From contig CAWCYI010000004.1 in the NCBI GenBank assembly GCA_963799845.1, forward strand, positions 1,856,001-1,920,000: DNA of 64,000 bases, given 5' to 3'. The DNA is from an uncultured Nitrososphaerota archaeon. GTDB lineage: Archaea; Thermoproteota; Nitrososphaeria; Nitrososphaerales; CADDZS01. The notes beneath the pieces were generated by a model. It saw nothing but the letters and a program-made list of their open reading frames with translations. It was not told where the DNA came from and did no database searches. Shown here one piece after another: positions 554 to 32,707 of this stretch. Each line of letters opens with the position of its first letter. Position 1 is the stretch's first letter. A program made the position numbers and the translations under genes.

Positions 554-772
554 TCAGGCGGCTCGGGCCGGATGACCCTTCCCAGCTTTCGTCGTACTTA
601 GTTTACCCGGCTCATGAAAGAGCATATGTTGGGTTAGGTCAGCCTGATTTGTGAAGACCTGCCCACAGATTTTGCACTGAAATGATCCTTGCCGAGTTGA
701 TGAAGGACCAATTATCTCAGCGTCAGAAGAAGGTGTACTCTTAGTAGAGTCAGCCGGTCTGTCGCTTTGCAA
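554..772 (-). CDS. Small C2H2 zinc-finger protein
   Basis: F-x-CKIC-x3-F-x5-L-x2-H-x3-H motif (FQCKICGQVFTNQADLTQHMLFH) in a 72-aa hydrophilic ORF; TATA-like element and palindromic site upstream. Confidence 0.75.
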   Translation of the reverse strand: MQSDRPADSTKSTPSSDAEIIGPSSTRQGSFQCKICGQVFTNQADLTQHMLFHEPGKLSTTKAGKGHPARAA

Positions 773-1013
773 CTATACCGCCTAAGTAATTTCTGTTTCC
801 GAGCTATTATGATTTCAGATAGAATCTTCATACTTGAAGGGAACTGAGACTTGAAGGTGAACTCCGGCTTTTGGGGTCCCTCTTTATCAAGGAATCCAAG
901 ATAATTGTTCTAATTTTGATAGAACAGTTTACTGACATTGTCTGACCGCATGAAAGTGGTTGAGAGCCTTTCCCAAACCCCAGATAATTGGAAAAATGCA
1001 GGGGTATACTGCT

Positions 1014-1190
1014 CTAGGAATTTTTAGATCGCTGTGATTTTGGAGTATTCGGCGTTGCCTCCTCCTCCTCCGTCAAAGGGTACGGCTTTGTGTCTTTCTT
1101 TTCCTTTGAAGATCTATCAAGTTTGTCAGGTGTGGGAGCTTTCGTCGGCTCCTACTTTCGAGTCATATCCTGGTTTTCGGTTTTCTTCAT
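1014..1190 (-). pseudogene. Small hydrophilic K/E/P/T-rich protein with in-frame TAG at codon 13
   Basis: Hand translation MKKTENQDMTRK*EPTKAPTPDKLDRSSKEKKDTKPYPLTEEEATPNTPKSQRSKNS; composition resembles the other island microproteins. Confidence 0.35.
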
Positions 1191-1234
1191 GAAATCAACT
1201 CTTGTTTATCTGGGAAAATATAGACCCCTATCTC

Positions 1235-1339
1235 TCAACCTATGAGCGAGAAAAGCCTCCATAAATCGCGCAGATGCTTTGAAGTTTTTTCGCTAGTCTT
1301 GCTCTCTTGTTTGTATCCGACTAGTTGTTGCTTTGGCAT
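1235..1339 (-). CDS. 34-aa microprotein (N-terminus and promoter paralogous to 14669..14848)
   Basis: MPKQQLVGYKQESKTSEKTSKHLRDLWRLFSLIG; the upstream ~65 bp aligns with the region upstream of 14848. Confidence 0.45.
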   Translation of the reverse strand: MPKQQLVGYKQESKTSEKTSKHLRDLWRLFSLIG

Positions 1340-1748
1340 GATTCCCCTCAAAAAGACGATTGATAATTTCAATTATTTGTCGCAATCACAAAGAAAAAAG
1401 TTCTAGATCAATCAATTCTCAAGAATTAGTGGGTGATCGATCTCGGTCGTTCAGCCCGTTTCTTAACTGAGAAATATCTAAGCGGGCATATCCAGCATCA
1501 AGAATTATAATATGCGCTAGCACCTTTACGAACTAAAGATTAACTACAAGAGCGCGCTCTCTCTTGGAATCCTAAAGATTGCTCTCAACTTCGAGAACCT
1601 AAATATTCGTTGATCCGCGTGTTTTTTTGAATGATCCTTTTTCTCAAAATCTTATATGGCATAAATGAATTTTTGGCGGATTTCTTTGTTAGATAAGATT
1701 GTAACCTTTCATTAATCAATTTAGGGAGGAACAAATCTTCTGGTCTTA

Positions 1749-1895
1749 ATGCCAAAGGGAAAAACTCACCGTTTTACTTCGAAAGAACACAGGCAAGCCG
1801 AACACATCATAGAATCAGAGGAAAAATTGGGTAGGTCCAAAGAAAGGGCCAAAAGAATTGCGTATGCGACTGTCAATAAACAAAAAAAGTCTTAA
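1749..1895 (+). CDS. 48-aa basic microprotein of the 'RQxEHIxES..G....RAKxIAxxTVNK' family (often annotated plasmid-stabilization-like)
   Basis: Hand translation MPKGKTHRFTSKEHRQAEHIIESEEKLGRSKERAKRIAYATVNKQKKS; paralog at 8141..8329. Confidence 0.7.
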   Translation: MPKGKTHRFTSKEHRQAEHIIESEEKLGRSKERAKRIAYATVNKQKKS

Positions 1896-3466: not shown

Positions 3467-3607
3467 ATGTCAGCATTGATGAAATGTGAAGTGTGCGCCG
3501 ATATTTTCAATAAAAGACAAGAATTAGAAGTACATTATAGAGCGGAGCACAACCCGGAATCAAAAAAATCGAAGCAGAGTAACCTTCATCCAAGATTAAT
3601 CGAGTGA
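3467..3607 (+). CDS. 46-aa C2H2 zinc-finger microprotein
   Basis: Hand translation MSALMKCEVCADIFNKRQELEVHYRAEHNPESKKSKQSNLHPRLIE; TATA (CTTTATAA) upstream. Confidence 0.7.
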   Translation: MSALMKCEVCADIFNKRQELEVHYRAEHNPESKKSKQSNLHPRLIE

Positions 3608-3615
3608 TTATCGAA

Positions 3616-3780
3616 TTGTCAAAACACCTCCTGCAAGGGGAGAAAGATAAGATCAAGGGAAAGCTTCGCGTGGCAAAAGGAAGAATAAGCGGTAATCGGA
3701 CAGAAGTGGTGAAAGGAAGGCTTCAGCAAAAGAAAGGGATTCTGAAAAAGAAAATTTGGCGATTGAGGTACCGCCTATAG
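3616..3780 (+). CDS. CsbD-like small basic stress protein
   Basis: TTG start; DKIKGKLRVAKGRISGNRTEVVKGRLQQKKG follows the CsbD pattern KGKxKxxxGxxxGxxxxxxxGxxxQxxG. Confidence 0.55.
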   Translation: MSKHLLQGEKDKIKGKLRVAKGRISGNRTEVVKGRLQQKKGILKKKIWRLRYRL

Positions 3781-5129: not shown

Positions 5130-5429
5130 CTACCCTTTCCACAGTCCGATGCCGAACCCGATAATCCAGAAGATCGGAAACGCGTAGAATACAGCCCCGA
5201 TGTGGGACGCCTGAGAGAGGAAGATATCCACGATGCGGCTCCAGACATCCGACAGACTGATGAAGGGAATTGAAAGACCAATGGCACCGGCGAGAACAAG
5301 CCCCACAACTATGAGAATCGCGGAACTTATCCCCTTCTTTGCGGCGAGCCAAAGACCAGTCCATCCGCGAATAAAAGTACTATCGATACGACTCCGGCTA
5401 TCGTCGTTGGAGGCGCGATCAACTTTCAA
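5130..5429 (-). CDS. Small membrane protein, paralog of 11130..11423 (N-terminus divergent)
   Basis: AAKKGISSAILIVVGLVLAGAIGLSIPF...PIFWIIGFGIG aligns with AAAKGVTSIILIVVGLVIASFIGLSIPF...PILWIVGFLVG. Confidence 0.65.
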   Translation of the reverse strand: MKVDRASNDDSRSRIDSTFIRGWTGLWLAAKKGISSAILIVVGLVLAGAIGLSIPFISLSDVWSRIVDIFLSQASHIGAVFYAFPIFWIIGFGIGLWKG

Positions 5430-5436: not shown

Positions 5437-5745
5437 TTATGTTTGTACTAGTGAAGGTTCAGGGGGCGCGTTTTGTTTTAGACTTTCATTTCGCACTTTC
5501 GCAGATGGCATTAGCTCTTTGATCTCTTCGTATGCATTCAAGAATTTGAGTCCTTTTTCCGTTATTAAGTAAAGTCGAGCTCCTTCATCATATCTTACCA
5601 AGTCTCTGTCCTGGAGCAGGCCGAGATATTCAGACAGTTGGGCGTACGATAAGTAAGCGCTGTACATTATGCGAGTCTTGGTCGTACCTGATCCGATTGA
5701 CCGCAACATGCTGTCGATAATTTCTGTGCTGCTTCTGTACTTCAT
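5437..5745 (-). CDS. Archaeal winged-HTH transcriptional regulator (HTH_45/ArnR1-like), paralog 1
   Basis: MKYRSSTEIIDSML...TKTRIMYSAYLSYAQLSEYL...YLITEKGLKFLNAY. Confidence 0.9.
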   Translation of the reverse strand: MKYRSSTEIIDSMLRSIGSGTTKTRIMYSAYLSYAQLSEYLGLLQDRDLVRYDEGARLYLITEKGLKFLNAYEEIKELMPSAKVRNESLKQNAPPEPSLVQT

Positions 5746-5787: not shown

Positions 5788-5802
5788 TGGAACAATGTTT
5801 GT
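5788..5802. promoter_or_regulatory. Candidate 15-bp island operator upstream of wHTH paralog 1
   Basis: TGGAACAATGTTTGT, 43 bp from the ATG and ~5 bp beyond the TATA-like AATATTAA. Confidence 0.5.
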
Positions 5803-6176: not shown

Positions 6177-6443
6177 TCAAGTATGAGGCTCGCGATTGGA
6201 GTCGTTTCCGGAAATAAATGGGTATACACCTGCCAGAACTTCGGCTTCGGTGGCGCGGAGGTAGACTCTTTCTCCATCAAAAGTTGCCACTGACTCCTTG
6301 GGAATCCGAAGTAATCGCATACCTCTGACTGCTACAAGAAGAGGGCCGTCGCCTTCTTTGGTATGGCCAACTTCCTTGTTATCACAGCTTTTGACTTCTT
6401 TTCCCGTTATTTCGGCGTCCTGCCAGGTTGGAACAGTTATCAT
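6177..6443 (-). CDS. PRC-barrel-like small protein
   Basis: GKEVKSCDNKEVGHTKE...LRIPKESVATFDGERVYL PRC-barrel-type pattern. Confidence 0.6.
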   Translation of the reverse strand: MITVPTWQDAEITGKEVKSCDNKEVGHTKEGDGPLLVAVRGMRLLRIPKESVATFDGERVYLRATEAEVLAGVYPFISGNDSNREPHT

Positions 6444-6674: not shown

Positions 6675-7625
6675 TTGGCGCAAGAATTCGATAAATTATT
6701 AGTCGCAATCGATGACTCAGATATTGCCGATCAAGTATTGCATCTTGCGATTGGCATTGCTCTTCCCGATTCATCCAGGCTCGATGTACTCCACGTCGTG
6801 AATCCCTCTCCTTCTACGGCAGTCGAGATTCCATCTCCATTGCTTGGGTCGTCTGTTCCTCCGGTTATTCCCCTCCCGGCCGACTCTGCTCAAAGCACCC
6901 CCGAGGATTCGGATTCAAATGCCAAGTTAAAGGGTGAGGAACTTCTCGCCGAAAGTAAAGCTGAGATTCAAAAAGCTTCACAGAATTTTAGTAGCGATAA
7001 GAAACTCCAGTGCGATACTATTTTACTCAGATCCTCCGACGTTGCTAGAGAGATAATCAGGACATCAAAAGAGGGAGCTTACGACCTAGTGATAGTTGGC
7101 AGTCGAGGCCTCGGCATTCTCAAGAGCTTCTTTCTCGGAAGTGTCTCAAAAAAGGTCGCCAAGGAAGCTAAGTGTTCGGTCCTCGTTGTAAAGAAAGCGT
7201 CCGGCACCCTCAATAGGTTTCTCCTTGGATACAACGGTTCCGAAGAAGGAAAGAAAGCTCTCAACATTGGTGCAAGTCTTGGTAAGAATTTCAATGCGGA
7301 AATTGATCCGATATGTGTGGTCAGTATTCCTCCTATCATGCCTACTATTGAACAATCAACCATAAACAATCTTGAAGGAGAAATGAAATCTTATGCGGCT
7401 GATGCTGTTTCATCCCTCAAGAATCAAGGTGTCCCTACGTCTAAGGGAATAGTGATCGATTCACCGAGCATATCAGGAGCGATAGAGGAGTATTCTACCA
7501 AGAACTCCTACGATCTTGTTATCGTTGGAAACCACCCGAAAGGGAAACTGGAAACCCTTCTGCTAGGGAGTGTGTCTTTAGACGTCGTCGAACAATCAAA
7601 AACCAATGTCCTCGTGGTCAAATGA
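6675..7625 (+). CDS. Universal stress protein (tandem USP domains)
   Basis: LLVAIDDS...DLVIVGSRGLG...LGSVSKKV...SVLVVK and a second copy DLVIVG...LGSVS...NVLVVK. Confidence 0.93.
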   Translation: MAQEFDKLLVAIDDSDIADQVLHLAIGIALPDSSRLDVLHVVNPSPSTAVEIPSPLLGSSVPPVIPLPADSAQSTPEDSDSNAKLKGEELLAESKAEIQKASQNFSSDKKLQCDTILLRSSDVAREIIRTSKEGAYDLVIVGSRGLGILKSFFLGSVSKKVAKEAKCSVLVVKKASGTLNRFLLGYNGSEEGKKALNIGASLGKNFNAEIDPICVVSIPPIMPTIEQSTINNLEGEMKSYAADAVSSLKNQGVPTSKGIVIDSPSISGAIEEYSTKNSYDLVIVGNHPKGKLETLLLGSVSLDVVEQSKTNVLVVK

Positions 7626-8140: not shown

Positions 8141-8329
8141 TTATTCTTCTCGCACCTCGCGTGACAGATCTTTTTGTACAGTTCTCCACTCTATTTCCTC
8201 CGCACGTTCTGGCGAATCACCACGGGCCTCCTCACTTCGCTCTATGTGCTCTGCCATCCTGTCTGCCTTTTCGGTGTGTTCATGGCCTCCTACGCCTCTT
8301 CGAATTTCGCTATGTTTCTTGCTCGGCAT
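8141..8329 (-). CDS. Small charged protein, paralog of 1749..1895
   Basis: DRMAEHIERSEEARGDSPERAEEIEWRTVQK motif. Confidence 0.7.
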   Translation of the reverse strand: MPSKKHSEIRRGVGGHEHTEKADRMAEHIERSEEARGDSPERAEEIEWRTVQKDLSREVREE

Positions 8330-8526: not shown

Positions 8527-8769
8527 TCAATCCATTCCTCGGACTAGATTACATGCCGCTCTGACTCTTCTGGAATTTTCCTCTGCGTAGGATCTTATTT
8601 TCAGGAGAGAAAGTTCGATCGCTTGACTATTTCCCTTGCCCTGCTCAATAGAATCTTCGATTATTTCGTCCTCGAAAACTATCATTTGGTCAATGTCGAC
8701 GCTCGAATGCATCAGTAAATCTACTGTTTGCCTTATCCCAGGCTTATTGGGATCCACTTCCTCTAGCAA
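8527..8769 (-). CDS. Hypothetical helical protein
   Basis: 80-aa ORF with protein-like composition; no family recognised. Confidence 0.4.
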   Translation of the reverse strand: MLEEVDPNKPGIRQTVDLLMHSSVDIDQMIVFEDEIIEDSIEQGKGNSQAIELSLLKIRSYAEENSRRVRAACNLVRGMD

Positions 8770-9113: not shown

Positions 9114-9335
9114 CTATCCTTCTTTTCTTGTGCTTTTGAATTGTTTTACTTTCCCAAAATCTTTGACAGATATTCCAAATTTCTTTGCTGCCCTGATTAT
9201 TCTCCTTCTTGCCACCTCGGGATGACAGAATTTTGATTCGACCTGGTCAAACCTCGCCATTGCATTGCGTACGTGAACGGCATCGTTTATTGGAAGTTTG
9301 CGATCTCTCGGGCAAGCATATTCAATGATCTTCAA
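9114..9335 (-). CDS. DUF6582-like small protein
   Basis: RKLPINDAVHVRNAMARFDQV...ARRRIIRAAKKFGI motif. Confidence 0.7.
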   Translation of the reverse strand: MKIIEYACPRDRKLPINDAVHVRNAMARFDQVESKFCHPEVARRRIIRAAKKFGISVKDFGKVKQFKSTRKEG

Positions 9336-9617
9336 TTTCTGTCTCCAGCCGTACTTAATTTTACCGAATTTTTTCTCCCCAATTTTATGAAATCTTTTTC
9401 AAGAGGGAATCCGAAATCAAACCTGCTCCGAATCGGGTCTTGGGTACGCGTCGTCAATCAGCTGGTACTGATCTGAATAATTGTCGCAATATCGGGAGAA
9501 TCCTATCATGTGGGAAGCTTGACCGTAACAATTTGATTACAACGGATGCATCTTAGTTTGCCTTTTGTGATGGATGCTGACAAAATAATTCTCAATTTTC
9601 TACTTAACTATAGGCTA

Positions 9618-10347: not shown

Positions 10348-10626
10348 GTGCTAGGACCAGATCTAATTTTTCGTCTTTCTATCTCAATTTTTCCCTCGAT
10401 TCAACAGAGTGGTCTTGGAATCCTGTCGGGCTTTGCAGATCTGATTGGAGGCGCGATTCCTCTAGTCATAGGGATTTTGATCATTGTGTTGATTGTTGGA
10501 GCTGCGATAATTCTACTCCCGGCGCTTCTTGTTGGAGTGGTTATCTGGTTTCTGACTGGGAGTTTCTTTTACGCCGGAATAGCGTTTCTCGTAATCGCAG
10601 CGATAAGTCTTGTGAAACTGATCTGA
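10348..10626 (+). CDS. Small membrane protein
   Basis: Highly hydrophobic ORF with 2-3 TM segments. Confidence 0.6.
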   Translation: MLGPDLIFRLSISIFPSIQQSGLGILSGFADLIGGAIPLVIGILIIVLIVGAAIILLPALLVGVVIWFLTGSFFYAGIAFLVIAAISLVKLI

Positions 10627-20565: not shown

Positions 20566-20602
20566 TAACTATGTTGCATTATGGATAAGACCTCCGTGTC
20601 AC

Positions 20603-21881: not shown

Positions 21882-21969
21882 TAGCCTCTACGTATTCTTG
21901 ACAGTCTTAATGCGTAAATTAATGAGATGTGATATTCTTTCAGAAGAATATTGGATTCAAGAAAGTGTG

Positions 21970-22338: not shown

Positions 22339-22537
22339 TTGGAAAGGGTTCTGACAGCGAGCCTTTAACCAGACTTAAATGCCTTATCATTTCAGCATCA
22401 AGAAAAATATGGACTCGACCAATGCCGTGGTCATTGTCCTACATAGATGCTTGAAGAGGAAGCTGAATTTTCAAATCTTAAGATAGGATTATAGCTCCAA
22501 CAATTATATACAGCAGAGAGCATACTATAAAATAAAA

Positions 22538-23950
22538 ATGCCCCGGGATCGAGGCCAAATTCTCCAGGTAGCGGATCATCGGAGAATTCCTAACGAATTA
22601 GAGCAATTCCTGCATCACGACGCTTTCTCCCTTGTAGTCAAGGGTGGGGCCGGCACCGGCAAAACTGCTCTGGCATTGACAATTTTTAGCATGTCTGTGG
22701 AAAAGCAAAACTGTCTCTACATTTCTAGCAGGCTCGCTCTCCCAGAGCTGTTTGAGTTCTATCCTTGGGTTCGAAATTACGTGCCCAACACAAAAGCTGG
22801 GAATCAAAGTTCCGAATTTTCGGGTGAGAGTACTGAAGTCGGTCCTTTCGTCGATGCTCGTTTAGATGAGCCCCAATCCCTTTTTGAGAGAATAACAAAT
22901 CAGTTGATGGATGCAAGTTCTCCTCTAATTGTGATAGACACTTGGGACGCCGTCGGGGATTTCATGGACAAAGAAGCCCTAATGACAAATGCAAAGATAC
23001 TCCAAATTTGGAGACAGAGGGCTCGCGCGAAACTCATATTCGTTCTCGAAAATGTGGAGGACATAATTTTCGACAATCTGGTAGACGGAGTTGTGGAACT
23101 TGAAGAAGATTACGTTAATTCGCGGAGAATCCGAAGAATACGTCTGACCAAGCTTCGGGGGATCAAAATCGAAAAGCCCCAGAACTTTTTCACTCTAAAC
23201 GAGGGTGTCTTTCACAGTTTCGATCAATACGACCAGTCGAAGTGGATCGAGCTATCTGATGCCGTCGATTCTGGGTCTTATGGTTTTCAGTCTGTTGATA
23301 TATTTCCTGACGGATCTCTTCGTTCCTCAATCTCAGTTGAGGGCATTCTGGCTGGAAAAATTCCAAAACATACGGTTGTTAGTATTGAACTGGATCCTAC
23401 AGCAAGTTCAAAGTCAATTCTTCCACTTATTGCTAGAATCGTTTCAGGATATTCCAGGAAAAATGAAGTTGTTTTGTTGCCTCCCTTGGGCGTCGCGGAC
23501 AAGGATATCGAGAGCCTATTGAAATTATTTGTCACAAACTCCAAGCAGAGGAGGAGAATCCGGATACTGAATCAGAATAATGGAAAGGCTTGGACAAATG
23601 AAAATTTTGCACAGTTAACGGATGTATTGAAGAAAATTGTCGCCAAGAACAAAGGAAAAGAGAACCGCTCCGAACTTCTTGGTGTATTTTCCATCGGCCC
23701 ATTATTCAACAAGGATATGACTGATCTTGAGAATCTTGTCGAAACCATAATTTCAGATTTTGATTCTTCGGTTGTAGTAACCCGATCGAGTGACAGCTTC
23801 CAGAAGCTATCCGAAATTGCCGATGTCCGTTTCAGGATAATCGAACTGGAAGGAAATCTATTCGTGCAGCCTGATAACCCATGGGCGAGCCTATACGGGA
23901 TCGAGAACGAGAAAAATGGCGAAATAATTTCAGTTAGACCAATGGTATGA
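22538..23950 (+). CDS. GvpD/KaiC/RAD55-like P-loop ATPase with degenerate second domain
   Basis: Walker A GGAGTGKT, Walker B IVIDTWD, R-finger motif IRLTKLRG; the second domain lacks Walker A. Confidence 0.82.
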   Translation: MPRDRGQILQVADHRRIPNELEQFLHHDAFSLVVKGGAGTGKTALALTIFSMSVEKQNCLYISSRLALPELFEFYPWVRNYVPNTKAGNQSSEFSGESTEVGPFVDARLDEPQSLFERITNQLMDASSPLIVIDTWDAVGDFMDKEALMTNAKILQIWRQRARAKLIFVLENVEDIIFDNLVDGVVELEEDYVNSRRIRRIRLTKLRGIKIEKPQNFFTLNEGVFHSFDQYDQSKWIELSDAVDSGSYGFQSVDIFPDGSLRSSISVEGILAGKIPKHTVVSIELDPTASSKSILPLIARIVSGYSRKNEVVLLPPLGVADKDIESLLKLFVTNSKQRRRIRILNQNNGKAWTNENFAQLTDVLKKIVAKNKGKENRSELLGVFSIGPLFNKDMTDLENLVETIISDFDSSVVVTRSSDSFQKLSEIADVRFRIIELEGNLFVQPDNPWASLYGIENEKNGEIISVRPMV

Positions 23951-23969
23951 CGTATAGGGTTTTCGAAAC

Positions 23970-24350
23970 TTAGTTGATAAATGATTCAGCCACATCTTCC
24001 AGCTTACTTCGTGATATTGCAGCTTCCAAAACTTGTTGCAGCTGCTGGTATTTACGCATGAACATCATCCCAGATTCTGTTGTGTAATAACACATGGTAA
24101 CGTGACTTTCATCCTTCCTTCCTTCAAGAAATTTGCAATTAAGTAGAAATGAAAGGTACTGTTGCATCTGTTTTGAGTTCAGATTGCAACTGTACATTAT
24201 TCTTGTCTTGACTGAGCCGGAAACACACTGAGAGAGGATCAACCAGATAATCTCAATCCACCCGCGCTTTCGTTTGCTAGATTGCAAATGTTCCTCTACA
24301 AGCGAATTCAAATATCCTCGCTCTCTCGAAGGTGGAACTTGCATGTTCAT
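23970..24350 (-). CDS. Archaeal winged-HTH regulator (HTH_45-like), divergent paralog 4
   Basis: KRGWIEII...KTRIMYSCNLNSKQMQQYL...YYTTESG. Confidence 0.85.
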   Translation of the reverse strand: MNMQVPPSRERGYLNSLVEEHLQSSKRKRGWIEIIWLILSQCVSGSVKTRIMYSCNLNSKQMQQYLSFLLNCKFLEGRKDESHVTMCYYTTESGMMFMRKYQQLQQVLEAAISRSKLEDVAESFIN

Positions 24351-25050
24351 GTTCCAGTTAGTATCTCCTCAAGGTTGATTCTTTGTTCTGGGGATATTCT
24401 GGGAATTCTCTCAATGGGCACCTGAGCGAGTGCCAAATCCTTCGTTAGACAAAGCTTCAAAACTTGAAAGCCTCCACGTGGTTTGTCGCAGTATTTAGGC
24501 GACTCTGAAGCGCCCGATACTCTGCAAGTCCCTTTATGGCGTTTGCCTTTAGGTACAGTTTACTATGCTGCGACCAGAAGATATCAATTAATCGGACTTT
24601 CTTGTTGATGACGTCAGAAATGTCAAAGTAAACTTGGGGAGAGAAATTCTTGGTAAGCGGGATCTCGTAAGCGAGAATGTTCGAATAGTAACGTCCCGCT
24701 TCCACTGTCGCGAGCGCGATTGCCCGATGATCATGGTGGGAGTCCCCGTCAGAGTGAGTCAGAATAAGGTCCGGTCTTGCCTTGTTTATTATGTGCTCAA
24801 TGTGGTTGATCAAATTATCATTAACGGAAAGCTTCATGTCTTCAAAATTGTCGATCCACAAGTTGGTTGCGCCAATAAACCTTGCCGATTCTTGCAGTTC
24901 CCTAGTTCTCTGAACCGGGTCTCCAGAGGCTGAACCTCTGGTCACTGCGTACATATTCACGAAATGACCTTGGCTGGCGCATTTTATCAAAAGCCCACCA
25001 CAACCCAATTCAATGTCATCAGGGTGGGCATCTATCGCTAATATGTTCAC
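24347..25050 (-). CDS. PIG-L/LmbE-family de-N-acetylase (1-nt frameshift near 24465)
   Basis: AHPDDIELGCGG and DSHHDH motifs; the restored C-terminus EAF(E)VLKLCLTKDL...EEILTGT ends in an ATGA overlap with the wHTH start. Confidence 0.88.
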
Positions 25051-25085
25051 GAGCTTAGAAGACCATCGAATTATCTTATGAATAC

Positions 25086-25125
25086 GGGAATAATGTTCGA
25101 AACATTGTTCTCAAACATTGTAACC
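25086..25125. promoter_or_regulatory. Triple tandem copies of the island operator upstream of PIG-L
   Basis: GGGAATAATGTTCGA, CGAAACATTGTTCTC and TCAAACATTGTAACC at 12-13 bp pitch. Confidence 0.5.
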
Positions 25126-25254
25126 TTTGAATCATATTTTTAATGTCTCGAACTTGTTTTCAAGATTTGAACGACCGTTCTACGAATTTGAACGGGCATT
25201 CTATTCCATGCCGTAATATATCGAATTCCCGATTCAAGATGTAATTGATGGAAA

Positions 25255-25608
25255 ATGAAAGTCATGCTTGTAGACGACGAACAAGATATTCGCGAGCTCT
25301 ATGCCCGGATTCTGAATCGTGAGGGATACACTACAGTGAACTCATATTCAAATGGCGCCGATGCCGTGGCTGCCCTTCAGGAAGAAACAAATCATGCTGA
25401 TGTGATGGTCATAGATTATAAGATGCCAAAAATGGACGGTATTGAGGCTACCAGAAGAATTAGAAGTATGAACCTGAACATAAAGGTGATCATGGCGTCA
25501 GGCAGTGATGAGCTAACGGAATCCGATAGTTCTTTGTTTGACGTTATTTTGACAAAACCTATTTCGTTTCACGATCTGGTGAACGCTATCCAGAGATTCT
25601 GTCTCTAG
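25255..25608 (+). CDS. Stand-alone response-regulator receiver
   Basis: VMLVDDE...DVMVIDYKMPKMDGIE...MASG...KP. Confidence 0.93.
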   Translation: MKVMLVDDEQDIRELYARILNREGYTTVNSYSNGADAVAALQEETNHADVMVIDYKMPKMDGIEATRRIRSMNLNIKVIMASGSDELTESDSSLFDVILTKPISFHDLVNAIQRFCL

Positions 25609-25901
25609 TGATCTTTTTTGATTAGGATAAGAGGCATCGCAGTCTATTGACAATATTTTAGAATCTTTTTCTTTCTTTCTTTCAAGTCTTGCAAAACTGA
25701 TCATAGAAAGGTAAGACGTCGATACGCCGGAGTTAACAATCGAATCCAAAATTGAGTTGAAACACAAAACTTTGACTCGAAAATTCAAGCTTATCTGTCC
25801 AATATTGCCAATCCTGCACACAATTTCTAAACAAAGTCTTAAGAGTGAAAACTCATCCAAAAGACAAATCGAATCCTGAAAAATAAGATGCGTCTTTACC
25901 A

Positions 25902-26282
25902 GTGACTAACAGAAGAAAAATTCTGATCATTGATGACGATGCGGACGTCACACGCCTTTTCAAATTCGGCCTAGAGAGTGGAGGATTCGATGTTGATTAT
26001 TTTAATGATTCAAGGATAGCTCTCGATAGAATCAAACCCGATCTAAAATATGACCTCGCGATCTTGGACATTCGCATGCCCGATGTAGATGGTTTCGAAT
26101 TTTATAGGAAATTCAGTCTTATAGATAATCGGACGGCTGTGTGTTTCTTCACGGCTTTCGAAGACGAAGAGAAAGTGCACAATCTTATGCGAGATGATCC
26201 CAGGATTAAAGGGATCCTCAAGAAACCTATGAGTCTTTCAGAGTTCACAGCTCGAATTCAGCAACTAATCAATGGTAAATAA
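25902..26282 (+). CDS. Stand-alone response-regulator receiver
   Basis: ILIIDDD...DLAILDIRMPDVDGFE...FFTAF...KKP. Confidence 0.93.
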   Translation: MTNRRKILIIDDDADVTRLFKFGLESGGFDVDYFNDSRIALDRIKPDLKYDLAILDIRMPDVDGFEFYRKFSLIDNRTAVCFFTAFEDEEKVHNLMRDDPRIKGILKKPMSLSEFTARIQQLINGK

Positions 26283-26322
26283 TTATTACGCGCCCTAACG
26301 AGAACTAGCGGAGGACCAAGCT

Positions 26323-28258
26323 TTGAAAATACCAGACATTTCTTTTTCAAAGAGATCCTCACTCATAATTGTTGGAATAATCGTCATCGCTGCAGTCTTA
26401 TCTCTAGCTTCTCTCCTATCATACAGCTACACGTCTACGAATATAACAAATTCAGCAATCGGTGAAATCCATCTCAATGCTCAAATTCAAGCGAATGATA
26501 TGAGCAACTTGGTCGTAGCAAAGTTGGAATCTGTCTCTACCAATCTAGAAGTAATTTCCGGATCAAAAGCTGTCGAGAATCAAAATGTAACAGTAGTCCA
26601 GAGCCTCCTCGACGCAGCTCAGAATTCTACGAGTAATTTCACATTTTCTTACGCATGGATTAACAAATCAGGTATTTCGTTAGCCAGCTCTAATATTACG
26701 AATTTTGAAATTGCCAAGCAGGAAGGAGATCTAAACGAGAGCCAGAGGTCATTCTTTATAGAAGCGGAAGAGACGGGGACGACTTACTATAGCACTGCAA
26801 CAATCTCGGTTGTGAGTGGAAAGCAGTACATAGTGATAGACTCAACCGCTATTCATCGATCAATTAAATGGGTCACGCGCCACAAATCTGTTCAACGGAA
26901 TCTTGACAGCGTCAATTAGTCTCATTTCTCTAGGCAGGTACGTTCAAACCCAGTTATCCTCTCATTCCCAAAATTCCGTCGGACTTCTTGACCCGACTGG
27001 GGTTATTTTGTATTCAACTAACGAGTCGGCGATAGGAAGCAATGTTTTCGCAAACCAGTTTCAGGATTCGCTACCTTCAGCCCTAAAAGGACCATTCTAT
27101 TCCATGATCAACGAATCTCTTCTAGGACAGCCTGGAATTTCGGATTTTTCATTCAACGGTTCCAGCGGGACTTTTGCTTATCAGCCAGTATTTGTTCCCA
27201 GAGGATCCAATGAGTCAAACCCTCAAGAATTTGCAATACTTTTTATTTCTGCGCCTCACGTCTTGGCAGCGATCCAGACATCTCAAATTACTTTTCTTGG
27301 CGAAGTAACAGGAATCACAGTTGGAGGAATTGTTGCCGTCTCACTCGTTGCATCCATCACGGTATTGCGATGGAACAAGAGACTTGATGAACGCGTGAAA
27401 GAGAAAACTGCTGAATTAGTTTCTTCAAACGAAAGACTTGCTTTGGCTAACGCTCAGCTTGAAGATCAGAATAGAGCACAAAAAGATCTTATCAACATAG
27501 CCGCACACGAGCTTAGAACGCCCACTCAAAGCATCTTGGTAAGTACGGAAATAATGCAAGATACTTTGCGCTCGGCTGAAAAAGTTTCGTTTCCTTCTAT
27601 TCCATCAGCGGATAGCTCGCCCCTTTTGCAAAGAGCGATCTCATCCAACATAATCACTCCGGATTCAGCCCGGTCGACCGAGACTTCTTATCTAGATCTG
27701 AAAGAATTAGTTGAAACTACAAACAGAAACGCAAAAAGGCTTTCAAAACTGACTCAGAACATTCTAGAGGTTGCAAAGATTGATAATAAAGCCCTAAAAT
27801 TGGAACTTGAAACTTTCAACCTGAACGATACGATACGGGAAGCAATTGAGGATTGCCGCATGTCATCTTCGATTAATGGTTTTGGAAACTACTTCAAAAT
27901 CGTTTTCGAACCCAGTTCCTCTACGCTTCCAGTAACTTCTGACAAAACAAAAGTCTACGAGGTAGTCCAAAATCTATTGAGGAATGCAGTGGAACATTCA
28001 GGAAGCAGTGGTAAGAAGATAATTATTACAGCGGAAAAGTCGAGTGGTTCTATCCTGGTAAGCGTCAAAGACGAGGGAACTGGGATTGATCCTGAAATAC
28101 AACCCAGGCTGTTCAACAAATTTGTAACCAAAATGGGGACCGGACCTGGTTTATACATTTCAAAGGGATATGTTGAAGCGCTTGGTGGAAAAATCTGGGC
28201 CGAAAATAATTCCGACGGGCCTGGTGCGACTTTCTCTTTTTCTTTGCCGCAGGAGTAA
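26323..28258 (+). CDS. Membrane sensor histidine kinase with extracellular Cache-like domain (frameshifted ~26840-26900)
   Basis: TM1, extracellular domain, TM2, AAHELRTP, NLLRNAVEH, DEGTGID, GTGPGLYIS. Confidence 0.88.
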
Positions 28259-28317
28259 CAGAAGAAGATTATCGATTTGATGATACCAAACTTTACGTTT
28301 CAGAAAGTCTGCTGACT

Positions 28318-28716
28318 TCATAGCGAACTTACAATTTGATCCGTCTTTACGTTTGCCAGGGATTCAGCGAGCTGTTCAGATGAAAAAGGTTTCAAGATAT
28401 AGGGCAATCCCGCTTCAATCGCCTTTTGCCTAACGAAATCGTACCCAGTTGCGATGATTATCTTGGTCTTATTTCGGTATCTTTGGATGATCCTGGCCGC
28501 TTCTATTCCATTCATCTCGGGCATTCGATAATCCATTATGATAATATCAAATGACTGACGATCTTTCGCCATCGCCCTGACTATCGAAGTTCCATCTTTG
28601 AAAATAGACGGAGGTGAATATCCTAACTTCTGAATAACTCTTGAATAAAGATCGGTCAGGTTCACATCGTCGTCGACTACGGCAATTTTCAAATTCTTAT
28701 TTTCTTCCACTTGCAA
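28318..28716 (-). CDS. Stand-alone response-regulator receiver
   Basis: IAVVDDD...DIIIMDYRMPEMNGIE...IATGY...LKP. Confidence 0.93.
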   Translation of the reverse strand: MQVEENKNLKIAVVDDDVNLTDLYSRVIQKLGYSPPSIFKDGTSIVRAMAKDRQSFDIIIMDYRMPEMNGIEAARIIQRYRNKTKIIIATGYDFVRQKAIEAGLPYILKPFSSEQLAESLANVKTDQIVSSL

Positions 28717-28814
28717 AAATCCACTCTATCTTATGAGAATACTCGGTTGATGAATACGCACCAGTGCCGAGTCTCGTATAAAAAGGGGCCGTCAATTTTG
28801 CTGGAAGTTTCCTA

Positions 28815-28829
28815 TAGAAGAATCTTCCA
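28815..28829. promoter_or_regulatory. Candidate 15-bp island operator (near-perfect palindrome)
   Basis: TAGAAGAATCTTCCA, one mismatch from the reverse complement of 19036-19050. Confidence 0.55.
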
Positions 28830-28918
28830 AATTATTACCCTCAATAGATGATCAGTAAGTGCATGTTTTTCCGAGAGCAGTTCACGGAAATTCTTGTCAG
28901 GAAAAGGAGACTCCATTG

Positions 28919-29375
28919 CTAAAAGGGGTAAAATTTGGGGAACGTAACTCCAAATGCCAGACCGAGGACGACATCAAGTACAACCAGTACTATCCATGCT
29001 ATTACTATAATCGCCAAAGCTCCGAACCAATTCGTTTCGAAAGAAGCCCGATATACCGCGAGCCAACGTCTGATCCGAGGATGTTGAAATTGCAGTCGAA
29101 CTATTGGCGGAGGATTGGTTCTGATTCGTGAGGGAAGTAGTACTAACATCGCTCGACGCCGAGCTAATCGTCGAATTTGTATCATTTTTCGCGCTGAGGG
29201 GATCAGTCGAATTCGGTAGTTGAGGTGCCGGAATTTGGTTTTGGTCTGCCAGTCCCCGAATAAAGAAGACGCCAACGATCGCCGCAATTACTATTAATGA
29301 AATTAAGAGGAGTGTGAACAAGACAAGAAGACCGTTCTCCCTGTCACCCTTCCTCTCGTAAGGTCGATAAGACAC
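28919..29375 (-). CDS. Membrane protein with S/T-rich loop (likely frameshift joining the two track ORFs)
   Basis: N-terminal TM and S/T/N-rich stretch in 28974..29375; C-terminal TM WFGALAIIVIAWIVLVVL in the other frame. Confidence 0.5.
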
Positions 29376-29484
29376 CGTAATCCGAATAAAATACCAATTA
29401 GTTGCTTTATTGTCGGTGGAGCTTTGTTATCTAGGATAATTTTGGATACGAACCCTTGCTCATTTATAAATAAATACCAAAGAT

Positions 29485-29499
29485 TAGAACAATCTTACA
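29485..29499. promoter_or_regulatory. Candidate 15-bp island operator upstream of wHTH paralog 3
   Basis: TAGAACAATCTTACA followed by TTTTATTA; 37 bp from ATG 29536. Confidence 0.55.
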
Positions 29500-29526
29500 T
29501 TAAATTTTTATTATCGCGGCTCATCC

Positions 29527-29850
29527 GTGATTCTTATGAAGTACAGAAGTAGTACAGAGATAATTGACACTATTCTCAGGTCGTTAGATTCTGGTGCTAC
29601 TAGAACACGGATAATGTACAAGGCATATCTCTCCTACTCCCAATTGAAGGAATACCTCTCCCTGCTCCAAGACAGACAACTTCTGAAGTACGAAGAAGGG
29701 TCGCAGGTCTACACTATTACCGAAAAGGGACTTCGTTTTATGAACGCCTATGATGAGATTAGAGAATTGGTATCGGGGAGTCAAGAGGAAAATTTTCAAA
29801 AGGAGAGTCTGGGGACAACTCCGAATAAGAACCCTGAACTCTCCCAGTAA
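29527..29850 (+). CDS. Archaeal winged-HTH regulator (HTH_45-like), paralog 3; likely start ATG 29536
   Basis: MKYRSSTEIIDTIL...MYKAYLSYSQLKEYL...ITEKGLRFMNAY. Confidence 0.9.
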   Translation: MILMKYRSSTEIIDTILRSLDSGATRTRIMYKAYLSYSQLKEYLSLLQDRQLLKYEEGSQVYTITEKGLRFMNAYDEIRELVSGSQEENFQKESLGTTPNKNPELSQ

Positions 29851-29943
29851 TAAGTCTCTTTTTCCAGCAGAATTTCTTCCCCTCTCATGGTTTTTGAGGG
29901 GCGTTTATTCAGATCTCATTTCTGTTTATTCTGAGATATTTTG

Positions 29944-30480
29944 TTACGTGGAGTAGTGAGCAAGAAGCGTAGAACTCTGGGTGAGAGTTTCGGTCAGGCA
30001 GGGATCAGTACTCCCGTTAGACCAGTGTAGAAATGTGTACTGGTTATAGTTCTCCACGCAAGAGGTGTAAGTCTGTCCTTTAGTTGCTCCAGAGTAAGTC
30101 AGAGGGGAATATCCTTGACTGACAACCTGACCTGATGAATTTGTAATATAATGCGTAGAGTCCCGTAATTTGATTTCCCGACTGTGAAACTGTCTTAATG
30201 GTCAAAATTAAGCTGCCCCCTCCTGTCCCGCCATCGTCCGAATAGGAATCTCCACCGTAAATAGAGACCGTCCCCTGAGTTGAGGAAAGAACGCTGTTGC
30301 TTGAACTCAGGACTTCGATTTCTGCGCTCAGTGGCAAGATGAATTTCCCAACCTCGATGGTCGCCGAGCCACTTCGCTTTGGTGCACTCGCCAATTTACA
30401 TTCCCGTTACTGGGATTGATTAGCTCGACTTTCGCAGCACTTGAGGGTAGACCCGAGACGGTGAGATATTCGCGCTTGTC
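29944..30480 (-). pseudogene. C-terminal fragment of an S/T/G-rich extracellular repeat protein
   Basis: Across frameshifts it reads YLTVSGLPSS...TVSQSGNQITGLY...SGQVVSQGYSPLTYSGATKGQTYTSCVENYNQYTFLHWSNG...AHYST*; no start or signal peptide. Confidence 0.6.
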
Positions 30481-30696
30481 AAATAATAATTCAGAAACGT
30501 GGCGTAGAGTTCCGATCCAGTGTGCGACGTTTCGGGTTCAAGGTATATTTGGAATGGCTTTGGCATCAAGCACTTCAGCGATTAAATCTTGAAATTATAG
30601 TGTACGCGCGAAAGGAATACCGCTTTAGAATAATTTGACGGGGCGTATGAAAATACGGATGATAATCAGTCTGATCGAGATTTAACGAGAAATTTT

Positions 30697-31503
30697 CTAT
30701 GTGGCGATAGGCAGTGCAAATCTAAAGTTCGCTCCGCTCTGGGGCTTTGGATTGTTGGCAGCCATTATGGTGCCTTCGTGAGCCTCGATAATCTTTCGCG
30801 AAATGTACAGTCCCAGGCCCATTCCAGAGCCGGTGTCAGTTTTTTTGCCAAAGCGAGTAAACAAATGCGGATATACCTGGGAACTAATACCCGGGCCAGA
30901 GTCACGTACAATCACAATTGCGTAGCGCCCTGCTCTTTCAACTGCCATTTCAATCGCTCCCTCCTCCGTTACTTTTACCGCGTTCCCGAGAATATTGAAT
31001 AGAACTTGGGCTATTCTGTTCCTGTCGGCGTAAACATTGATTTCCTCACGAGAATCAAATTGCATTTGCACGTTCCTTTTCACGAACCGTCTGTGATCCT
31101 CCTGTACTTCGGAAATTAGAGCCGTCAGGTTGAATGTTGAACGTTCTAAAATAATGTTACGGGACTCGATTCTTGCCACATCCAGTATGTTTTGAGCCAG
31201 GTATTGCAGGCGGTAGGCGTTGCGGATAATGATTCGAAGTTCTTCCTTTTCCTTTCCCAACTCGTTCTGCAACATTTCAGCATTGAAAAGGATGGGCGAG
31301 ATCGGAGCCCGGAGTTCGTGGGCGGCAATATTGATGAAATCAGATTGATCTTCGAGTTGCTTTTGAAGCGCTTTCGTTTTTGACCCATTGGCACTTTCAC
31401 TAGCATTCGATATCTTGAGTACTGAGATAAATTCGTCAAGGGCTTGAAGCCCACGGTTAGATCGATCGCCAAGATTAGCGCGTATTGGTTCTTCGTTTAT
31501 CAA
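30697..31503 (-). CDS. Histidine kinase with minimal or no sensor domain
   Basis: AAHELRAP, NILGNAVK, DSGPGIS, GMGLGLYIS; only ~50 aa precede the H-box. Confidence 0.92.
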   Translation of the reverse strand: MINEEPIRANLGDRSNRGLQALDEFISVLKISNASESANGSKTKALQKQLEDQSDFINIAAHELRAPISPILFNAEMLQNELGKEKEELRIIIRNAYRLQYLAQNILDVARIESRNIILERSTFNLTALISEVQEDHRRFVKRNVQMQFDSREEINVYADRNRIAQVLFNILGNAVKVTEEGAIEMAVERAGRYAIVIVRDSGPGISSQVYPHLFTRFGKKTDTGSGMGLGLYISRKIIEAHEGTIMAANNPKPQSGANFRFALPIAT

Positions 31504-31777
31504 ACGAATGACGCCATAATAATCATACGAAGTTACACTTAAGGTCAGAAGTCATATTGTACCAATCGAATGATCTGGTCGTCTAATTCATCTCTAAATC
31601 AGAATGAAAAGATCATTTTGCGTTCTGTAGCTAAGACAACTGATCTCGACAAATGATCCAGCTCTTAAAGTAATTGGAAGATTTCTCAAGAGATTCTTCG
31701 ATTCCATTCTGAATTAGAATTTTCTAGACAATATTATCTGTCTGTATTATTTAGCCCGATCTTGCATCAACTCATCC

Positions 31778-32707
31778 ATGCAATTGAAACAGGAAATATT
31801 GGAAAAGGGAGACTGGCGACAATGCCCTCTCTGTCGCGGAAACATCGTTCTTGACATTGAGAGCAGTGAAAATATTTGCGATTCATGCGGGCTTGTGGTA
31901 GGAAATGACCTTGCCCCACCAGAGTTAAGGGTTGGAGAATTTGCAGCAAGGCAAGACGAAAGAGCAATTGCTCCTCCAAATCGCTTCGGTCAGACCTTCA
32001 TTGACAGAAGGAACGTTGATTCGAAAGGCAGGAAAATTCAAACTGCCGATAACCTGTTCATGATGCGAAAGCTGGACTTCCAGTCTTCGGCAGATAACTC
32101 GGACCGGAGCTACAAACGAGCCCTTCTGGAGATTACAAGAACCGGGGAACGACTGGGATTGGGCTTAGCCATTCAACGTGAGGCGATGTCGATTTATTCA
32201 AAAGCATCCGAAGAGGGCCTCATCAGAGGGAGATCGGTCGACGGTATCTGCACGGCCGCAATTTATGTAGCATGCAGGAAGCTAAATGTCCCTAGATTAT
32301 TGCAGGATATCGTTGAGGTCGCGGCTCACGAAGATCGCAAACAAATCGCACCGTACTGCAAACTGCTCTTTCGTCGGTTAGGAATTAGAGTGTCTCAGTT
32401 GGGTGCCGCGGAATATGTTGACTATGTTGCCCGGAACGCCCGGATTAGTTCCAGAACGCAGAGGGAAGCTCTATCTCTGCTATCTTCGATCGAGGGAAGT
32501 GCGATGCTCTCCGGAAAAAGGCCGATATCAATCGCTGCCGCTGCCTTGTACCTGGCTTCAAAAAAGACCGGAGAAAACTCCAGCCAGCTTCGAATCGCGG
32601 GTGCTACAAACTTGATGCCCACGACAGTACCAAAGACAGCTCTGGATATTGAACAAATATTCAAAGATCGAAAGCAAGAAACTGAGAATATTCCCCCCAC
32701 TCCCTAA
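31778..32707 (+). CDS. tfb: Transcription initiation factor IIB paralog (divergent)
   Basis: Zn ribbon CPLC...CDSCG, cyclin repeats GLIRGRS...AAIYVACR and GKRPISIAAAALYLA. Confidence 0.93.
   Translation: MQLKQEILEKGDWRQCPLCRGNIVLDIESSENICDSCGLVVGNDLAPPELRVGEFAARQDERAIAPPNRFGQTFIDRRNVDSKGRKIQTADNLFMMRKLDFQSSADNSDRSYKRALLEITRTGERLGLGLAIQREAMSIYSKASEEGLIRGRSVDGICTAAIYVACRKLNVPRLLQDIVEVAAHEDRKQIAPYCKLLFRRLGIRVSQLGAAEYVDYVARNARISSRTQREALSLLSSIEGSAMLSGKRPISIAAAALYLASKKTGENSSQLRIAGATNLMPTTVPKTALDIEQIFKDRKQETENIPPTP

Follow-up and report, generated by a model that had tools for sequence, protein, structure and literature searches.

A signalling island in a Nitrososphaerota genome as a probable expansion of a GvpD-type ATPase, winged-helix and TFB neighbourhood that flanks gas-vesicle genes in relatives

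Why does an archaeon hold nearly all of its two-component genes in one place, and what might such a collection control? The question is raised by a 64,000-nucleotide stretch of an uncultured Nitrososphaerota archaeon (assembly GCA_963799845.1, contig CAWCYI010000004.1, positions 1,856,001 to 1,920,000), here called the window, in which histidine kinases, stand-alone receivers, Sso10a-family winged helix-turn-helix (wHTH) proteins, a GvpD-type KaiC-like ATPase and a divergent transcription factor B (TFB) lie together with a recurring promoter palindrome. The window corresponds to G000:C4:1856001-1920000, G000 being a 4.6-Mb assembly of nine contigs with 86.7% completeness and 4.9% contamination. 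A first-pass annotation of the sequence had proposed that the island might be the functional counterpart, in archaea, of the SigB/RpoS general-stress response of bacteria, with the regulators switching on YciF, CsbD and universal stress protein (USP) genes under desiccation or starvation. The analysis described here led elsewhere. The region is probably a lineage-specific expansion of an old Nitrososphaeria neighbourhood of GvpD-type ATPase, two-component, Sso10a-type wHTH and TFB genes, which flanks a gas-vesicle (gvp) operon in other genomes. In the best explanation, the core consists of the GvpD-type KaiC-like ATPase, a short soluble kinase, the receiver RR2, HTH_45 proteins and one dedicated TFB paralogue, and the palindrome would be the common cis-element of this circuit.

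The regulatory gene content reported at first pass was borne out by Pfam profile scans of the window open reading frames (ORFs; Table 1). All four histidine kinases (HK1 to HK4) and all five receivers (RR1 to RR5) were confirmed; the receivers have no known output domain and retain the DD pair, the phospho-acceptor Asp and the Lys-Pro pair, and D8, D9, D52, K104 and P105 were invariant in an alignment of eight receivers. The four HTH_45 proteins scored 59-76 bits against a cut-off of 25.5, the ATPase exceeded the cut-off of the GvpD_P-loop family and the TFB matched TFIIB. The regulators are indeed gathered, but the island is not the approximately 32 kb first described. It covers about 53 kb, from about C4:1835800 to 1888707, and thus continues some 20 kb past the left end of the window, where a fifth island HTH_45 gene (HTH45e), another kinase, three receivers and an insertion sequence (IS) were found. 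Its GC content is 0.435, compared with 0.474 for the genome. When the whole genome was scanned with Pfam, eight of the nine Response_reg matches over the cut-off fell within C4:1835873-1884686, and five of the seven HATPase_c matches within C4:1850993-1887026. One of the two HATPase_c matches outside the island is a 331-aa frame of 25.1 bits without HisKA, and the other also matched HATPase_c_3. The 20 receivers of a complete, one-contig relative from another family are spread across its chromosome, so that the clustering of two-component genes is lineage specific.

The claim that many of these genes share a positioned palindrome held for eight gene starts, mostly those of regulators. The palindrome has the 15-nt consensus TAGAAsAWTsTTCyA. 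Inspection of upstream regions suggested the core GAAsAWTsTTC, and a palindromic seed search with every 15-mer of 39 intergenic pieces (10,985 nt) ranked TAGAAGAATCTTCCA and TGGAAGAATCTTCTA at the top. The seed statistic of 6.92 was reached in none of 25 first-order Markov resamples (mean 4.29, standard deviation 0.78, maximum 6.37). Expectation-maximization (EM) refinement converged on the matrix TnGAAsAWTsTTCnA, with 9.3 bits; this was the result of a capped run, an uncapped run having drifted to a low-information purine/pyrimidine pattern and been discarded. Positions 1-34200 of the window contain 21 sites of at least 10.5 bits, 18 intergenic and three within ORFs. Nine of these are located 43-62 nt before the eight starts, namely those of HTH45a, HTH45b, HTH45d, HK1, HK2, the PIG-L gene (two sites), an ORF for a Cys-rich 59-aa protein and ORF p97. 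Downstream of each start-proximal palindrome, at a distance of 2-7 nt, comes an A/T-rich, TATA-like box, which places the palindrome over or next to the position of the TFB recognition element (BRE). More sites lie 84-106 nt upstream of the TFB and RR5 genes. The two highest-scoring sites of the genome (17.9 and 17.7 bits) belong to the island, and only three sites in 4.6 Mb reach 17 bits. Intergenic matches to the core pattern with at most one mismatch reach 12-13 per 33 kb in the island, compared with a maximum of four in stretches that have no overlap with the island. Many core-pattern matches were also seen on contig C6 near 140 kb and near 1255 kb, but without intergenic clustering.

The neighbourhood was also found far outside this genus. 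A scan for the ATPase with one genome per species gave 21 loci; without two from genus mates, 19 distant loci remained, 17 of them with a complete ATPase ORF. They came from Nitrosotalea, Nitrosotenuis, Nitrosopumilaceae and other metagenome-assembled genomes (MAGs), as well as from the complete genome of Ca. Nitrosotalea devanaterra. Full-length ATPase matches were 34-39% identical to the window protein, while two end-cut loci gave 46% and 57%. The order ATPase, short kinase, RR2 on one strand was kept in 15 of the 17 loci; RR2 itself was present in 16 and was 59-68% identical. Within 7 kb of the distant ATPase, an HTH45d-TFB pair was found in four loci and PIG-L with HTH45c in three. In N. 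devanaterra, about 1 kb downstream of the operon, the genes gvpA, a Zn-ribbon ORF, gvpJ, gvpK, gvpF/L, gvpG and a second kinase follow, and Pfam confirmed Gas_vesicle, GvpK and GvpL_GvpF there, GvpG giving a weak match. It is this second kinase, at the end of the gvp operon, that is nearest to HK4 of the window (42% identity over 290 aa, 210 bits, against 159 bits for the kinase of the ATPase operon). A gvp cluster was present in 13 of the 19 distant loci and also in genome G015; most of the other loci are short contigs. As separate observations, a Spherulin4-family protein (L045:9668-10462, minus strand, and its relatives) lies between RR2 and gvpA in most of the distant gvp loci, and a fibronectin-III protein related to window ORF p104 follows the HTH_45 genes in N. 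devanaterra.

The palindrome occurs at the corresponding positions of these distant loci. The window-derived matrix located sites scoring 10 bits or more between the ATPase and kinase genes of 12 of the 15 distant operons, four loci having a site that is letter-identical to the best site of the window. Sites of that strength also preceded gvpA in 12 of 13 loci, the thirteenth being cut at gvpA, and genes of the HTH45d type in L036, L039, L042 and L043. All three places show one layout, palindrome, 2-7 nt and TATA. In the N. devanaterra genome, five of the eight exact matches to TAGAASAWTSTNCYA, and eight of the 29 matches with at most one mismatch, fall within about 28 kb around the gvp locus. 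The same stretch holds PIG-L, HTH45c, WbqC, the HTH45d-TFB pair and two more HTH_45 genes (four HTH_45 in total), and a perfect palindrome is located 57 nt upstream of the HTH45d-TFB pair.

Nearer relatives retain parts of the island. One genus mate (G004, contig C38) is collinear with 11.9-19.8 kb of the window, including RR1, HK1, p83, GtrA, p78b, HTH45b, HK2 and p186. The genes for PIG-L, HTH45c, ATPase, RR2 and WbqC are kept together in G003, G004 and G006, and in G006 the TFB-HTH45d pair directly adjoins PIG-L. When the spacers upstream of HTH45b were compared between the window and G004, the alignable part was the palindrome, 6 nt, the TATA box and the start only. The HK2 site is half kept in G004, and the HTH45d site in G006 retains both arms. 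The place in G004 that is equivalent to window positions 14901-14915 also has a site (L019:7776, 14.9 bits), and two G004 contigs of 19.2 kb together contain seven sites of at least 12 bits, where about one would be expected from the genome density of 264 per 4.6 Mb.

The region might still be a loose accretion, that is, a variable low-GC region in which the palindrome is only the autoregulatory operator of d-type HTH_45 genes and the kinases, ATPase and TFB have no joint function. The low GC content of the island fits this, as do the presence inside the extended island of an IS that has eight near-identical copies in the genome, the many paralogues within the island, a broken WbqC gene and the fact that the clearest palindromes precede HTH45a, HTH45b and HTH45d. 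An operator of HTH_45 genes only would not, however, be expected before gvpA and the kinase-receiver operon of distant genomes, or before HK1, HK2 and PIG-L here; nor does accretion agree with the ATPase-kinase-RR2 order of the 15 distant loci or with the recurrence, in several families, of an HTH45d-TFB pair with orthologous TFBs. Accretion was thus considered unlikely. The proposal that kinases, receivers, ATPase, HTH_45 proteins and TFB form a unit was supported by the conserved order, the shared palindrome and a TFB clade described below. Gene content, the concentration of two-component genes, the conserved order and palindrome positions, the gvp link in relatives and the orthology of the TFBs are all established.

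The candidate readers of the palindrome are the d-type HTH_45 proteins. HTH45d and HTH45c exceeded the NCBIfam Sso10a_fam cut-off of 60 (79.4 and 61.1 bits, respectively). The genome has 18 HTH_45 genes over the Pfam cut-off, five of them in the island. In the HTH_45 tree, the c-type proteins of different families grouped together with support (97/97), a separate clade (94/97) took in seven of the 11 included paralogues from outside the island, and the island proteins a, b, d and e fell into an unresolved, short-branched group with distant d-type proteins. The d-type proteins are 46-70% identical across families. A different reader of the palindrome may also be imagined: the linked TFB, which would then recognize an extended BRE, HTH45c or an unlinked regulator, with the HTH_45 proteins acting as Sso10a-like chromatin proteins. 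The palindrome does occupy or abut the BRE position, Sso10a proteins have been described as architectural chromatin proteins and putative regulators (PMC4941522), and the genome has as many as 18 HTH_45 genes. Yet the two-fold symmetry of the 15-mer would be more natural for a dimeric wHTH protein than for a monomeric TFB, at least nine genomes or loci have the site in front of the d-type genes themselves, and the DNA-binding region of the d-type proteins is conserved as strongly as the site. Another reader is therefore rather improbable. The palindrome at their own promoters and the pairing with a TFB suggest that the HTH_45 proteins could regulate in a sequence-specific manner.

The TFB of the island has a Zn ribbon and two cyclin repeats. 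Its Zn_Ribbon_TF score was 24.3 bits against a cut-off of 29, and the CxxC...CxxC pattern is present. The label 'divergent' given to it at first pass is fair, because its NCBIfam TFIIB score was 168.5 bits against a cut-off of 384. Multiple TFB genes, 4-11 paralogues, are usual in these archaea (PMC7554672, PMC4084955), and nine were found in G000, the island copy included. In a maximum-likelihood tree, the island TFB, the TFB of G006 and the four distant TFBs linked to HTH45d formed one group (92/90), which stood apart from the eight other paralogues of G000; the island TFB itself has a long branch. Elsewhere in the genome, another TFB paralogue at G000:C6:823622-827615 is about 2 kb from the sole kinase-like HATPase_c frame off the island, a neighbourhood that may be a second TFB-kinase pairing.

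The ATPase had been called KaiC/GvpD-like. It scored 45.6 bits with PF07088 (GvpD_P-loop, cut-off 24) and 25.1 bits with PF06745 (KaiC, cut-off 26.6). Its Walker A motif is intact (GAGTGKT), and its C-terminal half is without a P-loop. A comparison with PDB sequences gave no match at E <= 0.01. The profile of the C-terminal basic regions of GvpD, PF20440 (GvpD_bR2), gave a weak match with the G015 orthologue only (E 0.0046, 16.9 bits against a cut-off of 27.9) and no match with the window ATPase. Gas-vesicle genes are known in some ammonia oxidizers (PMC3835317, PMC7554672). In G000, tblastn searches for gvpA, gvpJ, gvpK, gvpF/L and gvpG and a profile search with PF00741 found none in an assembly of 86.7% completeness. 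The regulators thus persist here without gvp structural genes, within the limits of that assembly. Among the genus mates, G006 differs: a gvp cluster is located on a separate contig beside an orthologue of p186, with the palindrome-TATA layout also before gvpA, and the unpublished genome G001 likewise has a gvp cluster. No gvp cluster was found in the four other genus mates (G002-G005, 61-87% complete). Archaeal AmoA (PF12942) was not found in G000, the search having no positive control and the genome being 86.7% complete.

The distribution of the palindrome and of its neighbours also bears on the general-stress reading. There are reasons to consider that reading: the YciF/DUF892, tandem USP and CsbD-like genes adjoin the regulators, a dedicated TFB paralogue and a shared promoter element are present, and the sequencing runs that contain the stretch are soil metagenomes. 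Pfam confirmed the YciF-type gene, as a DUF892 fusion, and the tandem USP. The CsbD assignment was weakly supported, as the ORF resembles CsbD but remains under the Pfam cut-off; a distant CsbD relative is possible. Similarly, the PRC-barrel gene gave a weak DUF2171 hint. The YtjA/DUF1328 genes were not recovered, since none of the ORFs at 5130-5429, 10348-10626 and 11130-11423 had a Pfam match at E values up to 1. The stress-type genes sit in the left 11 kb of the window, and no palindrome of at least 10.5 bits was found within 150 nt upstream of the YciF, CsbD, USP and PRC-like genes; palindrome-bearing promoters here mostly drive regulators. In five genus mates (58-87% complete), YciF was not found with the window query, and USP matches were at best 41% identical (the top one in G001), with no close orthologue. 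Stress-type genes were absent from all distant neighbourhoods examined, which contain gvp, PIG-L, WbqC and glycan genes. A SigB/RpoS analogue is, on this evidence, very improbable, and the stress-type genes are regarded here as neighbours in a variable flank and not as the output of the regulon.

Several results weigh against the preferred reading, in which an old gas-vesicle-linked circuit with a common palindrome was expanded in this lineage. The promoters of the ATPase, RR2, RR4, HK3 and HK4 genes are without a site that reaches 10.5 bits inside 150 nt, and HTH45e has none where the site would usually be. The matrix derives from the window itself; outside the training sequence, in the 20-kb left extension with its paralogous genes, a single intergenic site reached 12 bits. 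Across the genome, non-coding DNA is not enriched in the core pattern, holding 153 of 624 matches (24.5%), as with shuffled patterns, and among exact 7-9-mers of the island spacers motif-related words rank high, with none surviving multiple-test correction. Simpler searches gave little: there were no exact palindromes with half-sites of at least 5 nt in four or more copies, half-site and gap enrichment over the genome was nowhere beyond about two-fold, the literal consensus AGAAGATTCTTCT with at most three mismatches had 61 matches where 43 were expected, and GAAGANTCTTC with at most one mismatch had eight where 5.6 were expected, which is not significant. The HK1 palindrome is not kept in G004. 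Among the distant loci, three of the 15 operons have no ATPase-kinase site, in the gvp loci of three other lineages (L024, L055 and L057) nothing upstream of gvpA reaches 11 bits, and N. devanaterra has no HTH_45 gene within 7 kb of its ATPase. The genome-wide pattern for N. devanaterra was widened after the distant sites had been seen, and the mutual relatedness of the distant loci makes their counts look more independent than they are. The C-terminal half of the ATPase, finally, offers sub-threshold GvpD_bR2 or KaiC hints only.

We infer which protein binds the palindrome, whether it activates or represses, which proteins interact and in what order the signal passes. A dimeric d-type HTH_45 protein would bind the palindrome at its own promoter, at those of kinase operons and PIG-L and, in relatives, at that of gvpA. 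As the palindrome abuts BRE/TATA, the bound protein would modulate TFB recruitment, helping or hindering it, possibly that of the linked paralogue. The kinases would phosphorylate the output-less receivers. RR2 may act on the ATPase, to which the shared operon and, by analogy, the fusions of KaiC with receiver (REC) domains in Methanosarcinaceae point (PMC5847659), and the ATPase may set the amount or activity of the winged-helix factor, much as GvpD does with GvpE. Within the genus, kinase-receiver pairs and HTH_45 copies would have been added by duplication, with no detectable gvp targets in G000. A bolder form of this scheme is offered only tentatively and may well not hold: an ancient circuit, resembling a sigma regulon, in which a receiver is read by the ATPase, the ATPase sets the level of an Sso10a-family activator and the palindrome-bound activator recruits the dedicated TFB, the gas-vesicle targets having been lost here and the circuit rebuilt by duplication as the single two-component hub of the cell. 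If true, output-less archaeal receivers would for the first time have a defined output route, and one thaumarchaeal TFB paralogue would have its first specific function.

Some genes of the island appear interrupted in the assembly. Contigs from three soil metagenome runs of one study were compared with window positions 12000-31999, and these short-read contigs are one base shorter than the assembly at 12978 (in one run) and at 15784 and 26840 (in two runs each). Once that base is removed, HK1, the GtrA-like protein and HK3 have frames of 566, 254 and 652 aa, similar in length to their G004 orthologues (586, 249 and 644 aa); HK3 had initially been listed as two ORFs of 198 and 451 aa. Because the contigs omit the base and the restored lengths are near those of the orthologues, the breaks are insertions in the assembly, and the reading of these three genes as pseudogenes was rejected. 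Two of the insertions occur in CCTCAGC/GCTGAGG and the third in GACTCAAC; those in CCTCAGC/GCTGAGG may represent a systematic long-read error at a methylated motif. The break in WbqC is real. A 3.1-kb short-read contig (19228-22326) agrees with the assembly with zero differences, and WbqC is intact in G004 and G006 (247 and 234 aa).

Table 1. Coordinates of the genes and palindromic sites discussed, in window positions (strand as + or -, a point for the sites)
Feature	Position	Strand	Evidence and remarks
C2H2 zinc-finger microprotein	554-772	-	Pfam zf-C2H2, E 1.9e-7; left edge of the finding
DUF892/YciF with unassigned N-terminal ~120 aa	2097-2945	+	Pfam DUF892, E 2e-50; flanking variable gene
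CsbD-like microprotein	3604-3780	+	Pfam CsbD, 24.6 bits (cut-off 40), E 2.3e-5; three paralogues elsewhere in the genome
HTH45a, Sso10a-family wHTH, d-type group	5437-5745	-	Pfam HTH_45, E 2.3e-21; alignment, tree
Palindrome	5788-5802	.	12.1 bits; centre 50 nt upstream of HTH45a; then TTAATATT
PRC-like gene	6177-6443		DUF2171 hint, E 0.013
Tandem USP	6675-7625	+	Pfam Usp, E 5.2e-48; flanking gene
RR1 receiver, 64-aa N-terminal extension	11940-12473	-	Pfam Response_reg; overlaps the end of HK1 (operon)
HK1	12470-14171	-	A single kinase, its frame broken in the assembly by one inserted base at 12978; H-box present
Palindrome	14215-14229	.	14.2 bits; centre 51 nt upstream of HK1
Palindrome	14901-14915	.	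12.9 bits; 60 nt upstream of the Cys-rich 59-aa ORF (14669-14848)
GtrA-like membrane protein	15396-16149	-	Frame broken in the assembly by one inserted base at 15784; G004 orthologue 249 aa
Palindrome	16612-16626	.	12.7 bits; 45 nt upstream of HTH45b; 6 nt, then TTATATTTT
HTH45b, Sso10a-family wHTH	16664-16984	+	Pfam HTH_45; PDB 1r7j (Sso10a), E 8.7e-12
HK2 histidine kinase	17175-18989	-	Pfam HATPase_c; G004 orthologue
Palindrome	19036-19050	.	17.7 bits, second best of the genome; 54 nt upstream of HK2; abuts AATTAATA
Two palindromes	20489-20565	.	13.8 and 15.9 bits; start of ORF p97
WbqC-like gene, truly disrupted	21361-21900	-	Two frames, middle missing
RR2 receiver	21970-22338	-	Pfam; 62% identical to the N. 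devanaterra orthologue; companion of the ATPase
GvpD-type KaiC-like ATPase	22538-23950	+	Pfam GvpD_P-loop
HTH45c, c-type clade, paired with PIG-L	23970-24350	-	Pfam, NCBIfam; clade 97/97
PIG-L family deacetylase	24457-25050	-	Conserved neighbour of HTH45c
Two overlapping palindromes	25086-25112	.	12.5 and 11.1 bits; 43 and 55 nt upstream of PIG-L
RR3 stand-alone receiver	25255-25608	+	Pfam Response_reg, alignment
RR4 stand-alone receiver	25902-26282	+	Pfam Response_reg, alignment
HK3 membrane kinase	26323-28258	+	Frame broken in the assembly by one inserted base at 26840
RR5 stand-alone receiver	28318-28716	-	Pfam; paralogues in the left extension and at C4:534920
Palindrome, best of the genome	28815-28829	.	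17.9 bits; identical 15 letters before the N. devanaterra kinase operon
Palindrome	29485-29499	.	13.2 bits; 44 nt upstream of HTH45d; 6 nt, then TTTTATTAT
HTH45d, Sso10a-family wHTH	29536-29850	+	NCBIfam Sso10a_fam; orthologues elsewhere directly before the orthologous TFB
HK4 short soluble kinase	30697-31503	-	Pfam HisKA and HATPase_c
Two overlapping palindrome-like sites	31675-31701	.	84-96 nt upstream of the TFB gene; first 12.1 bits; EM posteriors 0.86 and 0.33
Divergent TFB paralogue	31778-32707	+	Pfam TFIIB, two stretches, E 2e-28; Zn ribbon and two cyclin repeats

Other features of the region were recorded in passing. The IS-like element of the extended island is 1.04 kb long (G000:C4:1853102-1854142, window -2898 to -1858); its ORF encodes 304 aa (L002:17220-18134), and the eight copies in the genome are 99.6-100% identical. 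Two basic microproteins of 48 and 62 aa (1749-1895, plus strand; 8141-8329, minus strand) are paralogous; they had no Pfam match, and their only genome matches were each other. The small ORFs p80 and p78b (window 8527-8769 and 16223-16459) have a paralogue pair in the left extension (L002:8844-9104 and 9324-9551), and p78b has more copies at C4:1062k and C6:559-564k; no family was found for them. Searches of the window for tRNA genes and Rfam families found none. From 33205 to 64000 the window has a higher GC content (0.479), and its ORFs are long and densely packed.

The first-pass annotation held that no system of such composition had been described. For the arrangement as a whole this was tenable in part: a search of the full-text literature on KaiC, gas vesicles and GvpD/GvpE in Thaumarchaeota and ammonia oxidizers, supplements and the 2017 paper of Makarova, Galperin and Koonin being outside its scope, met with neither the ATPase-kinase-receiver operon nor the wHTH-TFB pair nor the palindrome. 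Gas-vesicle genes in ammonia oxidizers, stand-alone receivers, multiple TFBs and KaiC hubs were known before. The parts defined here are a conserved ATPase-kinase-receiver operon, a wHTH-TFB pair with orthologous TFBs and a 15-bp element at fixed promoter positions, and all three flank the gas-vesicle genes of Ca. Nitrosotalea devanaterra, which is in culture and has a completely sequenced genome. In the window genome, the regulatory module appears to have outlived its structural targets and now houses nearly all two-component genes. With the parts named, it becomes testable how stand-alone receivers, which make up about three-quarters of thaumarchaeal response regulators (PMC5847659), relay their signals and what roles the many TFB paralogues play.

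Close precedents do exist, among them the haloarchaeal GvpD/GvpE system of Halobacterium salinarum and Haloferax mediterranei. There, the upstream activating sequence (UAS) of GvpE adjoins BRE and this closeness is essential, while GvpD binds GvpE and lowers its amount, for which its Walker motif is required (PMC4390858); GvpE also binds TFBs and TATA-binding proteins (TBPs) in vitro (PMC2241852). The likeness lies in a GvpD-family P-loop ATPase beside gvp genes, in the relatives, and in an element of about 15-20 nt that adjoins BRE/TATA at gvpA and at the regulators' own promoter, as do UAS-A and UAS-D. Unlike the haloarchaeal loci, the loci studied here showed no GvpE homologue that was noticed, the candidate DNA binder being an Sso10a-family wHTH protein; the ATPase stands in a kinase-receiver operon, with a dedicated TFB linked to it; the element is truly palindromic; and gvp genes were not found in the window genome. 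A GvpD-like action on the wHTH protein would be an analogy.

A second comparison is with KaiC-like ATPases, which Makarova, Galperin and Koonin reportedly proposed in 2017 as hubs of archaeal signal transduction. The island resembles such hubs in that a KaiC-superfamily ATPase adjoins receivers, kinases and small wHTH proteins, and differs in being a specific conserved operon with a TFB pairing and a defined cis-element. KaiC-REC fusions elsewhere (PMC5847659) speak for a link from receiver to ATPase, and in H. volcanii the KaiC-like CirA and the small wHTH protein CsmR have overlapping regulons (PMC13286277). The HTH_45 proteins belong, by profile membership and a PDB sequence match, with the dimeric wHTH Sso10a family of Sulfolobus (PDB 1r7j). 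Sso10a proteins have been studied as chromatin or architectural proteins, whereas the genes here have a palindrome in their own promoters and a TFB pairing. The archaeal activators TFB-RF1 and Ptr2 attach to DNA immediately upstream of BRE and bring in TFB. EarA works in this way too (PMC13286277). With these activators the island shares the position of the element relative to TATA/BRE; the protein families differ, and activation in the island would be a deduction. With the SigB/RpoS response, the island has in common an initiation factor of an alternative kind (a TFB paralogue where bacteria have a sigma factor), together with upstream signalling and nearby YciF-, CsbD- and USP-type genes. 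It differs in that these stress-type genes lack the element and are not conserved neighbours, and in that the ancestral targets would be gas-vesicle and envelope genes.

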